A program made the position numbers and the translations under genes. A stretch of DNA of 64,000 nt, taken from sequence record QB031382.1. The stretch is one strand, 5' to 3'. Positions within the stretch are counted from its first letter, which is position 1, and each line of letters opens with the position of its first letter. Shown here in pieces: positions 54,513 to 62,214 of this stretch. The notes below the pieces were generated by a model. The model was not told where the DNA came from, searched no databases, and worked only from the letters and a program-made list of their open reading frames with translations. This stretch comes from a phage.

Positions 54513-54807
54513 TGCAGTCCTCCTTCTCTAATAGGTCTTTTATCGGGTAAACAAGTAGGTGCGGATCGTAATAACTTATAGTTCTATTCTGCCACACTAT
54601 GAACTTAATTACAACTAAATTTACTACATCCTTATCCCCATGTAGTCCAACACACAAATTTGTCCATATCTTGTGGTTGAATACTTTACTGTCGATGTAG
54701 ATTTTAGTGTCAAACTTATCCTCTATCCTGCCTATTAGTTTAACCAATTCTTTCATCTGATCTCCAAACACAGCATCATTTTCAAGATCTCTGGAGTGCT
54801 TGTACAT
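54499..54807 (-). CDS. hypothetical protein
   Basis: Track ORF. Confidence 0.5.
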   Translation of the reverse strand: MYKHSRDLENDAVFGDQMKELVKLIGRIEDKFDTKIYIDSKVFNHKIWTNLCVGLHGDKDVVNLVVIKFIVWQNRTISYYDPHLLVYPIKDLLEKEDCNAVI

Positions 54808-54870
54808 AACTATCTACCTCACTTGCATACTTTCCACAACAAGTAAAGCCGGGATCGCCCGGCTATGTTG

Positions 54871-55584
54871 TTAAATATACTCTGTTACATCCTTGAAGCT
54901 TGAAGGCTTCATGATCTTGCCTTTACTGTCAAGGAATATGATAACTTTATTACCGTTGTAGAATTCCTCTTTAGCAACAAAACCTTCATAGCGACCATCA
55001 AAGCGTCGCTCAAGATCTTTAATCTCCAACTCGATGAGTTGTTCAGCAGGCATATCTGCACTGGCACCGTGTGAATACCGCAGATGGTTGACCCGTGCAA
55101 ACTTGCTGTCATTAGATTTTAGAACCTTCCGCATCATCCCGCACACATCACCGCGAAGCTGGAACAGTAAAGCCGTTGACAGCTCTACTAAGCGGTAAGC
55201 AGACGCTCTTTGCTTAGAGGTATTTTTCGCAGCGATCAGTGTATCATAAAATTCACCGATCTTAAACTTAAGACCTCGCGGGTTATCAAACAGGTTTGAC
55301 CACTTTTCATGGTTATCGTTAACAAGATAAGCGGCATAACTTGTGACAACGTGAAGATCGCAGGCCTCTTTTAGGAGATGATCCCCACCATCACCTTTCT
55401 CCAACTCTTCCAAAACTTCATTGAACTCTTCCTCAATGAAACTCAGCTGAAGTTCGAATGGTGTGTATGATTTTTTCACTTTAGCTGCTACACGGTTCCA
55501 ATTTTCCACCCAGTTGGCAGACCAAAGGTAGTTTTCAGGCTGAGACAGTTTTTCCAGGTTGTCGATCAGTTTAGTATTCAGCAT
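54871..55584 (-). CDS. hypothetical protein, possible MazG-like NTP pyrophosphohydrolase
   Basis: Glu-rich helix SFIEEEFNEVLEELEKGDGGDHLLKE; weak call. Confidence 0.3.
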   Translation of the reverse strand: MLNTKLIDNLEKLSQPENYLWSANWVENWNRVAAKVKKSYTPFELQLSFIEEEFNEVLEELEKGDGGDHLLKEACDLHVVTSYAAYLVNDNHEKWSNLFDNPRGLKFKIGEFYDTLIAAKNTSKQRASAYRLVELSTALLFQLRGDVCGMMRKVLKSNDSKFARVNHLRYSHGASADMPAEQLIELEIKDLERRFDGRYEGFVAKEEFYNGNKVIIFLDSKGKIMKPSSFKDVTEYI

Positions 55585-57751: not shown

Positions 57752-58162
57752 ATGTCTAAAATGCTATATATCGTGCGTGGTCTACCAGGTTCTGGCAAAT
57801 CAACACTGGCAAATGCACTATCTTTAGAGGGGCTGTACCCACATTTTGAGAACGACATGTTCTGGTACGACGACGATGGAAATTACAACTGGGATGCAAG
57901 TAAAGTAACACTTGCAGCAAAATGGTGCAAAGATAACGTAGAAGATATGATACGTATGGGATACGACCGTGTCGTGGTAAGTAATACGTTTACAAAAGAA
58001 AAACATGTGCAAGAATATGTTGACATGGCAATCAGTCATGGGTATAGTTATACTGTGATCGTGGTTGAAAACCGCCACGGTAATAAGAGCATTCATGATG
58101 TTCCAAATAGGGTTGTGGACCGTATGGAGCGTGAGCTTAAAAACTGCATTAAACTAAAATGA
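57752..58162 (+). CDS. P-loop kinase, polynucleotide kinase-like
   Basis: GLPGSGKST Walker A, VVVSNTF; size and layout like the T4 Pnk kinase domain; RBS GGAGG. Confidence 0.5.
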   Translation: MSKMLYIVRGLPGSGKSTLANALSLEGLYPHFENDMFWYDDDGNYNWDASKVTLAAKWCKDNVEDMIRMGYDRVVVSNTFTKEKHVQEYVDMAISHGYSYTVIVVENRHGNKSIHDVPNRVVDRMERELKNCIKLK

Positions 58163-58169
58163 GGGATGT

Positions 58170-58724
58170 ATGAAATATTTTGTAACAAGCGATACACACT
58201 TTCTCCACCAGCGAGTCATGGAGTTTGATTCATGTCAAAAACACAGATCTCAGTATGATCGCAATCTTGACAGTATGAATGCAGGAATCATCGCCGAGTG
58301 GAACTCTGTTGTGTCACCGGAAGACACTGTGTTTCACTTGGGCGATATTGCATGCACTAAGGATAAGAATATCAACAAATTTCTCCCAGATGTTCTAAAT
58401 ATGTTGAACGGACATATTATTCTTGTTCGTGGTAACCATGACACAAGGACGACTGTCAGAATTATGAAAGAGTTCGGTCATGAGGTTGTAGATTATTACG
58501 AGCTTCGCCACAACAAGAATTTGATCTGTATGAGCCATTACCAGTTTGCAAAGTGGAACAGAAAGCCTCACGGATCAGTCCAACTGTTCGGTCATGCTCA
58601 CGGAACCACACAGCAGTTGTTTGGCAGGCAGTTTGATGTCGGTTGGGATGTGTGGGGGAGACTCTTACCATTAGAAGAGGCATACCGTATTGCAATGAGT
58701 CTTGCTATTGACAGCGGGGAGTAA
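58170..58724 (+). CDS. calcineurin-like metallophosphoesterase
   Basis: TSDTH, GDIA, VRGNHD, GHAHG metal-binding motifs. Confidence 0.65.
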   Translation: MKYFVTSDTHFLHQRVMEFDSCQKHRSQYDRNLDSMNAGIIAEWNSVVSPEDTVFHLGDIACTKDKNINKFLPDVLNMLNGHIILVRGNHDTRTTVRIMKEFGHEVVDYYELRHNKNLICMSHYQFAKWNRKPHGSVQLFGHAHGTTQQLFGRQFDVGWDVWGRLLPLEEAYRIAMSLAIDSGE

Positions 58725-58771
58725 TCCCTGCTATTTTAAAGAAAATTGCCACACAAGGAGAATCAGGAGAT

Positions 58772-59122
58772 ATGAAAGATGGGGATAAGCTACTATATCT
58801 TAAAGTCCCCCTTGAAATACTGTCTATGTCAAAAGTTTTGAATGACACAACCGGGGAGGTTGTTGTTCTTGACTTATATGACAAGATCGTATACTGCTAC
58901 CTGCACAACTGGTATAAGCTTGGAGGAAATTCACGCTTCACACCCAGCACAAGGAAAATTGCAGCAGATGTTGGGATAAAGAAAACAAAAGCAGCAGCGT
59001 GCGTTAAAACTTTAGAATGTGCAGGAGTGGTTGAAATATCCACACAAGGGAGAGGTAAAAGATGTACATTTTCCAAAGTTTTGCCGCCAGAGGAAGTTAT
59101 TCGAATGGCAACAACTGGTTAG
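58772..59122 (+). CDS. putative winged-helix DNA-binding protein
   Basis: Track ORF; STRKIAADVGIKKTKAAACVKTLECAGVVE looks like an HTH; directly upstream of palindromic operator array. Confidence 0.4.
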   Translation: MKDGDKLLYLKVPLEILSMSKVLNDTTGEVVVLDLYDKIVYCYLHNWYKLGGNSRFTPSTRKIAADVGIKKTKAAACVKTLECAGVVEISTQGRGKRCTFSKVLPPEEVIRMATTG

Positions 59123-59197
59123 ACCAGTAAAAACTTAAATATCTGTACTATAAAGGTTCGTATGTTTTATGTTCACTTTGGAGCTAAGATTATTAAC

Positions 59198-59257
59198 TGT
59201 CCGCCACGCGGACACATCTGCCCGTAATACGGACACTAACTGTCCGCAATACGGACA
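59198..59257. promoter_or_regulatory. array of palindromic operator-like sites
   Basis: TGTCCGC-CAC-GCGGACA 59198-59214, TGTCCG-CAATA-CGGACA 59241-59257, partial site between, centres about 21 bp apart. Confidence 0.65.
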
Positions 59258-59762
59258 CATAAAGAATATAACTAAAATAACTAAATAATAAAAATAAAAG
59301 ATCTAGTACTTATGGTACTAAAGTACATATACTTAACTTATGTAGAATATACTAGATCCTAAGTACCATGTTTTAAATTTATTACTTATTATGGGTAGTG
59401 TCGGCCCCTCATTGGCACTCGCCTACGAGGGGGCGAGATGCCGGGCCTCCATAGTGCACACAATAACAGGAGTGCATACATGCAGGACTGTTAACATGTG
59501 TGGGAGCGAAGCGATAGCGCAGGCCAAAGGCCGAGCACTAATGTGGACCACCGACGAAAGCTTGCCAGCGCCGTAAGGAGTCGGTTGAGAGACTCCCGCG
59601 CGAGTTTGGTTAAAGTTTATGTGTGGAAACGGACAAGAAGGCTCCTAAATCTCACCACAGCTGTGTAAACTCTACCAAGTAAGGCAATCGCACCAGTTTG
59701 ATAGAAAAGCTCGTTACAAAGCGATACAGTGAGTTTTTCTATAACTTGAAGAGGAGGCAGCT

Positions 59763-60341
59763 ATGAGTTCACGCAAAGATGACCGCGAAAAGATTGCAAA
59801 ACGTTATCAGAATGAAGAACAGATGGAGAAAACTTTCAAGTGGAAGCCAGGTTTCCAGCGTAATCATTCTAACGCTAGTGATCGTAAGCATCCGGATAAG
59901 TGGCTAACACCGCCAAATGATGGCATGCAGGTTGGTGATGAGAAGGAGCTATCGCCTGGAAAAGATGGCAACTACATTCGCACTAAGGACGCTGGTCCAA
60001 AGGATGACAGCTATCTTGTAGATAAAGTTCTTGATGGTATTGATGTAGATGTTGACACTACACGGAACTTTTTTCTTGGGTGGTATCGCACAGGTTTTTT
60101 CGACATCAAGGCCATTCGTCGTGTTTGTGATATTAAAAAGTCTGCATATGATGACGACTCGTTACATCGCACCCTGAGACAATATTCAGAAAGATATGGT
60201 CATCCGGTTATCACTCTTGACGATGTTAACGAAGTGATGTATCATGCAGAGGTTGTTGCAGGAAGATTTGGTGATGCATATCTGGATATCCTTTCTGCAA
60301 AGGATGAGGTAATGTTAAATAAGATTTACTATGAACGCTGA
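59763..60341 (+). CDS. hypothetical protein
   Basis: Track ORF; RBS GAGGAGG. Confidence 0.6.
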   Translation: MSSRKDDREKIAKRYQNEEQMEKTFKWKPGFQRNHSNASDRKHPDKWLTPPNDGMQVGDEKELSPGKDGNYIRTKDAGPKDDSYLVDKVLDGIDVDVDTTRNFFLGWYRTGFFDIKAIRRVCDIKKSAYDDDSLHRTLRQYSERYGHPVITLDDVNEVMYHAEVVAGRFGDAYLDILSAKDEVMLNKIYYER

Positions 60342-60353
60342 GAGGGGAGATTA

Positions 60354-60542
60354 ATGAATAATCCAGTAGCAAAGAACTGCAATAAGTTCAACAAGTCTGC
60401 AATTCACACTGACAGGAAAAAGAGCTGGTCGCCAGACATTGATGAGGAGCTTGAGAATTACTTTGAAGATCTGGTTACCAATGCAGGTGAGGTTGCGATT
60501 AAAGAATACACAGACAGGAGGTATAAGGCCGGAATCTGTTGA
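60354..60542 (+). CDS. hypothetical protein
   Basis: Track ORF; RBS GGGGAG. Confidence 0.45.
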   Translation: MNNPVAKNCNKFNKSAIHTDRKKSWSPDIDEELENYFEDLVTNAGEVAIKEYTDRRYKAGIC

Positions 60543-60618
60543 CAAAAATAATGTTACCTGATAAGATCTGCAATATGATGTGATACAATTTTAACTTACG
60601 AGGTCTACAGGTAATGCT

Positions 60619-60861
60619 ATGTTTAAGGTTAAGCTCGTTTTCCGTTCCATGAATGAGGATTATTTAGAAGATGAAGGTGAATTTCGTGCACTAGATGATG
60701 CAATAGATTTTGCCAACGACTTAGCTTGTATGAATACGGGTTATGGTTTATGTTGTTGGGATGGTGGTGTTCAGATTGGTGATAGCAAGATCTTCTACTT
60801 CTACCCTGAGCCCGATAACAAACAAATTAAGTATGTTTTATTTATTTGTGCTTTACAATGA
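60619..60861 (+). CDS. hypothetical protein
   Basis: Track ORF. Confidence 0.45.
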   Translation: MFKVKLVFRSMNEDYLEDEGEFRALDDAIDFANDLACMNTGYGLCCWDGGVQIGDSKIFYFYPEPDNKQIKYVLFICALQ

Positions 60862-61149
60862 GGTTGTTTTCGTGTATCATGATGAATATCCAATTTAAAG
60901 ATGAGTTTGATGGCTTTATCTCCGGATGCTTTGAAACAGGGTTCGGAGAAGTCTGAGTTCCCCTTAGAGGGCTTGATAGTGCACCACACTTAAAATGGTA
61001 GGGGCAGCCAGCACATGACGATGTGACCCCAGCCAACCTGTAATAAGGTCGAGCCAAAGCGCGGTAATGGGTCTCTGGTAACCCACTTGTTGGGTCTTGC
61101 TGGTCCAGGACGCTGGGCAAGTCGCAGGGAATACCACCCTGCGGCGAAC

Positions 61150-61178
61150 TTGACAATCAGTATTTGCCGTGATAAAAT
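61150..61178 (+). promoter_or_regulatory. sigma70-like promoter with downstream palindrome
   Basis: TTGACA 61150-61155, 17-bp spacer, TAAAAT 61173-61178; TATCACGTGATA at 61184-61195. Confidence 0.6.
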
Positions 61179-61206
61179 CCACCTATCACGTGATAATGGA
61201 GGAAAC

Positions 61207-61545
61207 ATGGCGGATACAACTAAAAAGCGTCGCCGTAGAGGCAGACCTCTGAAAGAGGAGTCCAACGCCATTCAGCTAGAGAAGAACATTCTTGATATGA
61301 AGGAATCTTTTATAGCAATGGTTCCAGAAGCTCACAAAGTTTTAAGAGAGCTGATGTTGGATCCGAAAACCAAGCAAAATATTCGTCAAAGCATTGCAGA
61401 GTATGTTCTTGATAAGGCAGACCGAATGCAGGAAGAATATGATGAGATGTTTGGTGAAGAGGAAGAGGTGGTAGTAGAAGAGGCTGAAAAACCAGCACCT
61501 TTTATGCCGTTTACCACAGAAATACAGCCTGTTGGCAATAGTTAA
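61207..61545 (+). CDS. hypothetical DNA-binding protein (RGRP AT-hook-like), possible small terminase subunit
   Basis: Track ORF 61087..61545 trimmed to ATG 61207 after GGAGG; N-terminal KKRRRRGRPLKEE. Confidence 0.35.
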   Translation: MADTTKKRRRRGRPLKEESNAIQLEKNILDMKESFIAMVPEAHKVLRELMLDPKTKQNIRQSIAEYVLDKADRMQEEYDEMFGEEEEVVVEEAEKPAPFMPFTTEIQPVGNS

Positions 61546-61641
61546 AATATTTTCTTGACAAACTTTGCTTAACAGTGTAATATTGTAAACATGGTCTCCC
61601 ACCTTTTCTGGCGGCTCAGGTGTAAAAGAAAGCCACCCAGT

Positions 61642-61716
61642 GCCCTGTTAGCTTAGTGGATAAAGCAGCGGCCTTCTAAGCCGTTGACACTGGTTCGAGT
61701 CCAGTACGGGGTGCCA
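61642..61716 (+). tRNA. tRNA-Arg(UCU): tRNA-Arg (anticodon UCU)
   Basis: Hand-folded cloverleaf: acceptor GCCCTGT/ACGGGGT, loop CTTCTAA, T-loop TTCGAGT, encoded CCA. Confidence 0.8.
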
Positions 61717-62110: not shown

Positions 62111-62207
62111 GCTAGGTAAGCCCTTTGGCAAGGGCGAGGATTTTTAATCCTGAAAATAGACGCGGTAGTCGTTGAATACATAGGTGGTTCGATTCCATCA
62201 CCTAGCA
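62111..62207 (+). tRNA. atypical tRNA-like gene, identity unresolved
   Basis: Perfect acceptor GCTAGGT/ACCTAGC, D-arm and T-arm (TTCGATT), but the anticodon region is a 6-bp hairpin AGGATT/AATCCT with UUU loop and about 30 extra nt; 97 nt. Confidence 0.4.
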
Positions 62208-62214
62208 CCTTTTT

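Follow-up and report, generated by a model that had tools for sequence, protein, structure and literature searches.

A candidate iteron-type replication origin beside a RepA_N-like winged-helix gene in rV5-like phages

Background

What is the role of a small winged-helix gene that is followed, in a large virulent phage, by phased palindromic sites and an extremely AT-rich tract? The arrangement lies in a 64,000-nucleotide stretch of phage DNA (sequence record QB031382.1; the whole stretch is called the window here, and positions count from its first letter), where a sequence-only reading had interpreted it as a repressor or initiator with cooperative binding sites next to an unwinding element. 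Region 58000-60400 of the window is 90-97% identical to 120 phage records, all of them Vequintavirus (rV5-like myophages), with Escherichia phage FV3 as the top match. These phages are common Escherichia coli O157 typing and therapy candidates. The skew-based origin search in the rV5 genome paper returned transcription-linked signals only and located no origin; in our literature search no paper connected the gene with the repeats and the AT tract, none defined an origin for rV5-like phages, and nothing usable came up on the DUF6945 domain family or on Vequintavirus transcriptomes. Already on record are an initiator label for the gene in RefSeq and, in some entries, a bare 'repeat_region'.

Our best reading, which we put at even chances, is that rV5-like phages begin replication, or mainly initiate it, at this locus, an origin of the iteron type with an initiator that would be reduced to its DNA-binding domain. 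The layout proposed in the sequence-only reading is upheld, and homology, site conservation and the AT extreme narrow its two options toward an initiator. The elements concerned are:

58772..59122, plus strand: winged-helix protein, 116 aa (rV5 gp075 / FV3_00072), which consists only of a RepA_N-like DNA-binding domain of DUF6945 type and lacks a C-terminal domain
59195..59260, no strand assigned: iteron-like array, three 21-22-bp repeats each with TGTCCG-N5-CGGACA (most relatives have four repeats)
59258..59395, no strand assigned: extreme AT tract of 21% GC, candidate DNA-unwinding element

Phased palindromic repeats next to an extreme AT tract

The array comprises site 1 (TGTCCGCCACGCGGACA, 59198-59214, centre 59206), site 2 (TGCCCGTAATACGGACA, 59219-59235, centre 59227, with one mismatch) and site 3 (TGTCCGCAATACGGACA, 59241-59257, centre 59249), which form the cores of direct repeats and whose centres are 21 and 22 bp apart. 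The sequence-only reading had described all three, the middle one as partial, with centres about 21 bp apart, and this description was accurate; it had also put them directly after the open reading frame (ORF), which is right as to the downstream side only, for ~75 bp lie between the stop codon and the array. With up to one mismatch allowed, TGTCCG-N5-CGGACA occurs three times in the 64 kb against 0.08 expected, a count reached by none of 100 shuffles. Genome-wide counts were made on FV3 (136,947 bp, assembled from three fetched pieces), where the motif at up to 2 mismatches is found five times, four of them in the array and one a stray within a gene. A second genomic copy was sought for the array, the AT tract and the GC-rich block that follows it (described below) and rejected, each being single-copy in FV3. 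Viewed as six alternating half-sites (starts 59198, 59209, 59219, 59230, 59241 and 59252), the array advances in steps of 11, 10, 11, 11 and 11 bp (~10.7 bp, about one helical turn), which places all half-sites on the same face of the helix and allows two palindrome registers.

Conservation was assessed in an alignment of ten genus members, in which third codon positions are 83-88% identical. Across the genus the half-sites are fixed, with only an occasional T-to-C or A-to-G change on one side, and it is the spacers, flanks and copy number that drift; the sequence-only reading had named lack of conservation in relatives among the findings that would refute it, and this did not occur. The 5-bp centres vary (CCACG, TCACG, CTACG, TAATA, CAATA, TGATA, TGAGA), and the repeat number is four in most genomes and three in the window and phage nomine, each having lost a different unit. 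Fixed half-sites with varying spacers and copy number form the pattern of protein-binding sites rather than of RNA hairpins, where compensated changes would be expected. Some GenBank records mark the array merely as 'repeat_region'. As a side observation, three independent Logan contigs end inside or just after the array, most likely owing to assembly breaks at repeats or to copy-number heterogeneity; genome termini were considered as the cause and rejected, assembly breaks at repeats being simpler.

An alternative is that the palindromes work at the RNA level, as hairpins that stabilise or terminate the gene's transcript in its 3' untranslated region, and they do lie downstream of the stop codon, in RNA predicted to fold at -25.8 kcal/mol (z -5.0). 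Any inverted repeat folds in this way, and we regard this explanation as very improbable. Variants such as TGCCCG...CGGACA and CGGGCA alter one arm without compensation (a pair is lost in two of the three variant types), and the helical phasing and the cross-genus co-variation of sites and protein described below are properties of DNA-binding sites. A scan for intrinsic terminators in 59123-59762 found none; the hairpins precede CACAT or CACTA with no T run, and the terminator version was rejected for want of a U-tract.

The adjoining AT-rich stretch, reported in the sequence-only reading at 59270-59390, is indeed present and is extreme on the scale of the genome. No other 100 bp of the 64 kb have a GC content as low as that of positions 59255-59354 (19%), and in FV3 the segment that flanks the array (64271-64390, 19.2% GC against a genome mean of 43.7%) is the most AT-rich 120-bp window of the genome. 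The tract is also conserved, with an identity of 0.957 against ~0.83-0.88 at third codon positions in the ten genus members. It holds two GATC (Dam) sites (59300 and 59355) where 0.23 are expected, and on the minus strand at 59291-59303 the only match in the 64 kb to GATCTnTTnTTTT, the E. coli oriC 13-mer consensus (0.11 expected), which we treat as a lead and not as a test. Four copies of GTAC fall within 65 bp (59306-59366), the densest cluster of the 64 kb; window-wide GTAC is about two-fold under-represented (122 observed, 238 expected). The nested palindromes that the sequence-only reading had named in the tract exist where it placed them (two with 5-bp arms, one with 9-bp arms at 59300-59308/59350-59358), and they do not exceed chance expectation for AT-rich sequence, so that a meaning for them is not supported: perfect arms reach 9 at most, whereas in dinucleotide shuffles the maximum averages 7.8 and is 9 or more in 22%.

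A stand-alone relative of RepA_N DNA-binding domains

The ORF at 58772..59122 encodes 116 aa, and the winged-helix fold first proposed for it is recovered by AlphaFold2. The model made with nine sequences (predicted local distance difference test, pLDDT, 84.5) has an N-terminal beta-hairpin, three helices, a wing and a C-terminal helix, in the order H-H-H-beta-beta; that made with a single sequence (pLDDT 37.5) is not usable. The best solved relative is PDB 4RO3 (E 1.5e-6 from the single sequence, 5.8e-17 from the family profile), the N-terminal domain of RepA from the Vibrio cholerae satellite PLE (Barth et al. NAR 2020, PMC7145576). Foldseek with the model likewise ranks 4RO3 first (template modelling score, TM, 0.65), and next the staphylococcal RepA N-terminal domains 4PQL, 4PT7 and 5KBJ (pSK41/pTZ2162; TM ~0.6); alignments with RepA N-terminal domains extend over 107-115 columns, against a 70-80-residue core only for transcription regulators. 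Reciprocally, tblastn of the 4RO3 fragment against 50,697 phage records retrieved only ICP1 (Odn) and the Vequintavirus protein, at 36-38% identity and with E 3e-4 for the reciprocal match. The PLE RepA N-terminal domain and Odn are the only relatives of known function. In PHROGs the protein belongs to phrog_12838, 'replication initiation protein', whose members carry the initiator annotation, and RefSeq has the same label via PHROGs.

Wider searches added little: a word-indexed search of 5.8 billion clustered proteins returned genus-level relatives only, an exhaustive HMMER search of 1.8 billion representatives gave a few extra homologues at 29-35% identity plus false matches to repetitive/Ig proteins, an IMG/VR scan with the protein gave no relative, and neither FV3 nor the window has a second paralogue. 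We judge that the 116-aa protein very probably binds the array.

PLE RepA is an initiator that binds semi-palindromic direct-repeat iterons needed for replication and relies on the ICP1 replisome (PMC7145576), namely a T7-like polymerase, a helicase-primase and an SF1B helicase. RepA_N iterons are direct repeats with inverted sub-repeats that converge on an A/T-rich centre (PMC7145576), and the C-terminal domain of PLE RepA, conserved across PLEs, is hypothesised to recruit the replisome. The locus in the window shares with this system a homologous DNA-binding domain (single-sequence identity ~28-38%), about three semi-palindromic direct repeats in non-coding DNA and the setting of a T7-like phage replisome; rV5 encodes a DnaB/T7 gp4-type helicase-primase and a PIF1/RecD-type helicase (rV5 genome paper). 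It differs in having no C-terminal domain in the protein, in its repeats (units of 21-22 bp that hold 6-bp sub-repeats, where PLE iterons measure ~30 bp and hold 13-bp ones) and in its carrier, a virulent 137-kb phage as opposed to a satellite. With the Staphylococcus RepA_N initiators of pSK41 and pTZ2162 the likeness covers the full length of the N-terminal domain (113-115 columns) and iterons whose inverted sub-repeats run toward an A-rich centre; the phage protein is unlike them in matching no Pfam RepA_N model and, again, in ending with the DNA-binding domain. In RepA_N plasmids of Staphylococcus the origin lies inside the rep gene.

Odn is the origin-directed nuclease that arose when ICP1 captured the same domain (Barth et al. 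eLife 2021, PMC8263062). Among the 50,697 records it is the only other phage protein with this DNA-binding domain; in Odn the domain is fused to a T5orf172/GIY-YIG nuclease that attacks a foreign origin, whereas the Vequintavirus protein has no nuclease and its sites lie in its own genome.

Related modules in other phages

Homologues of 92-136 aa and 20-25% identity occur in Erwinia Henunavirus, Klebsiella Mydovirus and Cronobacter Seunavirus and in Pseudomonas phage phiPMW; those of the sister genera measure 92-107 aa. Henuna-, Mydo- and Seunavirus, all Vequintavirinae, share one arrangement, in which divergent promoters are followed by a ~110-bp AT tract with AAAAGATCT, two sites, the ribosome-binding site (RBS) and the gene start. 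The AT tract includes AGATCT in all three, and the sites are two TGCTCAA(N)TTGAGCA palindromes 23 bp apart that differ in sequence from those of Vequintavirus. In phiPMW three GGACAAAATGTCC sites stand upstream of the gene, the sole such sites in 50 kb. Across these distant homologues, the site sequence changes together with the protein.

The 147-kb complete genome of Mydovirus BIS47 carries two modules. The tract by the sites of its first module (54778-54897; 18.3% GC against 44.6%) is the genome-wide minimum. A second paralogue, BIS47_214 (92 aa; record 117,277-117,701), marks the second module. It is followed by a pair of TGCAAATTTTGC palindromes spaced at 23 bp, of which the first overlaps the BIS47_214 stop codon, and then by an AT tract that has four GATC and is the tied second-lowest-GC window of the genome. 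The order of this second module, from gene to sites to tract, is that of the window, and its sequence could make it a second origin-like module in one genome. GATC is enriched in the tracts of the window and of Henuna-, Mydo- and Seunavirus alike, with 1-4 observed against 0.1-0.2 expected. The phiPMW site region has no GATC; its host genus, Pseudomonas, is not known to have Dam.

Further homologues were seen in metagenomes. An ENA contig (ERZ27232218:k141_109066, 3522-4687) has two tandem DUF6945 paralogues, of which P0013 bears an N-terminal GIY-YIG nuclease fusion, Odn-like with the domain order reversed; the upstream intergenic region holds at least five imperfect palindromes, GTGNAA-N5-TTNCAC. 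At another locus, L021, the gene of one of the longer homologues described next sits in a ~500-bp repeat-bearing divergent region between the operons of a primase-helicase and of DNA polymerase A. Three metagenomic homologues of 182-217 aa (P0011, P0012 and P0015) have an acidic C-terminal extension, which ends in ...EAPF or ...DAPF in the first two, recalling the C-terminal tip of single-stranded DNA-binding protein (SSB), and in ...PPWEA in P0015.

Replication origin or transcription regulator

We favour an origin because the only characterised relatives of the protein bind replication origins, because the site architecture matches RepA_N iterons, because the array is unique in the genome and adjoins the genome's least stable duplex in two genera, with Dam sites, and because the sites follow the gene, in the window as in the second BIS47 module, and no sigma70-like promoter overlies them. 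The layout is that of an iteron-type origin, with at least three phased direct repeats, an adjoining AT-rich tract and the gene 75 bp away. The principal alternative is that the protein is a local transcription regulator only, whose binding to the array represses, blocks or activates transcription across the boundary and takes no part in replication. The flanking features that bear on this alternative are:

58708..58737, plus strand: sigma70-type promoter TTGACA-18-TATTTT with TG, preceding the winged-helix gene; annotated as P76 in the rV5 record
59123..59194, no strand assigned: spacer, evolving at about the neutral rate (identity 0.84, near third codon positions)
59175 to 59147, minus strand: weak antisense promoter-like site TGAACA-17-TATAGT inside the spacer (9/12 match)

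We consider regulation alone possible but somewhat doubtful. It agrees with the label 'putative transcriptional regulator' in most GenBank records and with the small, single-domain winged helix. The repeats of phiPMW, of the tandem-paralogue contig and of L021 all stand in promoter-bearing divergent regions, and lambda-type operators resemble three or four 17-bp palindromes ~21-23 bp apart. The regulated target could be read-through from the early promoters to downstream genes, the weak antisense site at 59175-59147 or some promoter within the AT tract that has escaped recognition; the antisense site ends 23 bp from the array, and its -10 hexamer is retained in relatives or improved to TATAAT. 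Against it, no sigma70-like promoter overlaps or follows the sites on the plus strand between 58737 and 60125 in a crude scan limited to consensus-type promoters, and none is predicted there in rV5, so that the -35/-10 elements that would underlie the sites of a lambda CI/Cro-type operator were not seen. The gene's own promoter at 58708..58737 has no TGTCCG-N5-CGGACA site nearby, and in the window and the second module of BIS47 alike the sites come after the gene, a position that excludes simple promoter-proximal autoregulation as the conserved role. Regulation alone would also leave unexplained the AT extreme in two genera, the GATC enrichment and the kinship to an origin-binding domain.

Where the array lies just before the RBS, as in Henuna-, Mydo- and Seunavirus, the protein probably does repress its own gene. 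Plasmid Rep proteins commonly autoregulate, and for that reason origin and regulator readings are not exclusive.

Several observations weigh against an origin at this locus. At the level of the protein, the Pfam scores are just under threshold (DUF6945 27.1 bits with a cut-off of 28, HTH_36 24.5 with a cut-off of 25), the Pfam RepA_N model gives no match, the profile search also brings up weak matches to the CodY, MarR and GntR helix-turn-helix domains, and the chain terminates after one helix beyond the wing, leaving no room for the putative replisome-recruiting domain; a split version of that domain in the downstream ORFs was looked for and rejected, those ORFs having no recognisable domain. 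At the level of the DNA, the intergenic region has no DnaA box at up to 1 mismatch (the sole one in 59000-59900 is intragenic, at 59036) and no exact consensus for integration host factor (IHF), the replisome genes lie ~60 kb away in FV3, and AT-rich intergenic DNA is typical of strong promoters too. DnaA boxes and IHF sites are not universal among phage origins. As for the comparison among phages, the Henuna-, Mydo- and Seunavirus sites, between AT tract and RBS, sit exactly where an autoregulatory operator would, and in the first 50 kb of phiPMW the windows lowest in GC do not include the site region. The GATC tracts of Mydovirus module 1, Henunavirus and Seunavirus are mutually homologous and are not independent observations, and blastn of the window's intergenic region against a Mydovirus genome found no similarity, so that the cross-genus cassette is to be read as shared architecture plus short motifs and not as proven homology.

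Some other DNA-level role, as a decoy or competitor against a satellite or rival element with the same iterons, or as an organiser of recombination or packaging, seems unlikely to us. In its favour, ICP1 Odn is a case in which this domain was turned to use in phage-satellite conflict, a metagenomic phage carries the GIY-YIG fusion P0013, and the Vequintavirus protein lacks the initiator's C-terminal domain. The cognate sites, however, are in the phage's own genome beside the gene, the protein has no nuclease domain, and the terminase gene is 4 kb off and does not imply a packaging signal. Chromosomal iteron copies in E. coli were rejected, array and tract being absent from the 5,426 complete genomes searched, and a plasmid search matched only one whole-phage 'plasmid' record.

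Proposed mode of initiation

If the locus is an origin, the 116-aa protein would act as a stand-alone RepA_N-type origin-binding domain, bound as dimers to the three or four semi-palindromic repeats. As half-sites recur about every 10.7 bp, these dimers would line one face of ~65-85 bp of DNA and could contact each other, and the resulting nucleoprotein stretch would strain or bend the DNA and help to open the adjoining AT tract with its Dam sites. The phage's own T7-like helicase-primase and polymerase would then load at the opened tract. Since the protein lacks a recruiting domain, what guides loading would have to be the opened DNA itself, transcription passing through the locus or a further phage factor. 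Binding, cooperativity, DNA opening and the start of replication here are all predicted from sequence comparison.

Directly after the AT tract lies a further conserved element:

59397..59762, no strand assigned: conserved GC-rich non-coding block, 52-62% GC

Between the AT tract and this block lies a joint of 10 bp (59388-59398) that is variable. The identity of the block is 0.93 (59399-59762) with no codon periodicity, and its only long ORF is broken by a 1-nt indel. Folding z-scores are about -3 on both strands, the block has no Rfam match (with gathering and E-value thresholds, 59100-61700 gives nothing besides tRNAs), and RNAalifold on 8 relatives found 0 compensatory pairs, there being too little variation among them for covariation. 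As to its role, the block may belong to the origin region or act as a leader or non-coding RNA. A second GC-rich non-coding stretch (60900-61150, 51-61% GC) shows no sequence kinship to it and is followed just downstream by a near-consensus sigma70 promoter at 61150-61178 (rV5 P074).

Known iteron origins provide partial parallels. In ori-lambda, four iterons, each a dimer-bound palindrome, precede an AT-rich region inside the O gene; in P1 oriR an AT-rich region with GATC repeats precedes the iterons and then repA, the order also seen in the Henuna-, Mydo- and Seunavirus modules; and in RK2 oriV iterons are followed by an AT-rich and then a GC-rich region, as in the window. The initiators of all three are of other families, with extra domains or use of DnaA, while no DnaA box is found here.

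We also offer, tentatively, a joint reading in which Vequintavirinae and, with them, phages of distant synteny like phiPMW would use minimal initiators of the RepA_N type, ~100 aa long and without a recruiting domain, on phased palindromic iterons beside an unwinding element that bears Dam sites. Mydovirus would have two origins whose modules differ in specificity, the GC block that adjoins the AT tract could supply a primer or leader RNA, and phages of this kind would be the source of the PLE RepA/Odn domain. The candidate origin is precise, at 65 bp of sites and 130 bp of AT tract. If it is borne out, a RepA_N-type origin binder works without its putative replisome-recruiting C-terminal domain, a large family of virulent enterobacterial phages is linked to the PLE replication module and to the anti-satellite nuclease Odn, and a cis-element becomes available for engineering rV5-like phages or building phage-dependent replicons.

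Genomic context and minor observations

The locus lies 1.5 kb from the main switch of divergent transcription and skew. In window orientation the divergent junction is at ~57.65-57.75 kb, with RNA ligase and Sir2 genes to its left and, to its right, genes for a polynucleotide-kinase-like ATPase and a phosphoesterase and then the ORF at 58772-59122. Beyond that ORF come the 640-bp non-coding stretch, four small ORFs of no assigned function, seven tRNAs, spanins, terminase and structural genes. At 62111-62209 ARAGORN predicts a 99-nt tRNA-like gene with a four-base anticodon (atcc), which scores only 35.5 bits in Rfam and is annotated 'tRNA-OTHER' in phage nomine.

Elsewhere in FV3, ~2.2 kb at 104,328-106,594 has no annotated genes, lies at the convergent junction of two long transcription units and includes two of the genome's lowest-GC windows; it may be the 'non-coding' box on the map in the rV5 paper. 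Eighteen 'Campylobacter phage' records (MG0656xx) are 95-99% identical to Vequintavirus, and their hosts are probably misattributed or the sequences contaminants. A complete Vequintavirus genome has been deposited as the circular 137.6-kb 'plasmid' pRHB39-C03_2 (CP057073.1) of a cattle E. coli isolate, which suggests either a phage carried as an episome in culture or contamination.

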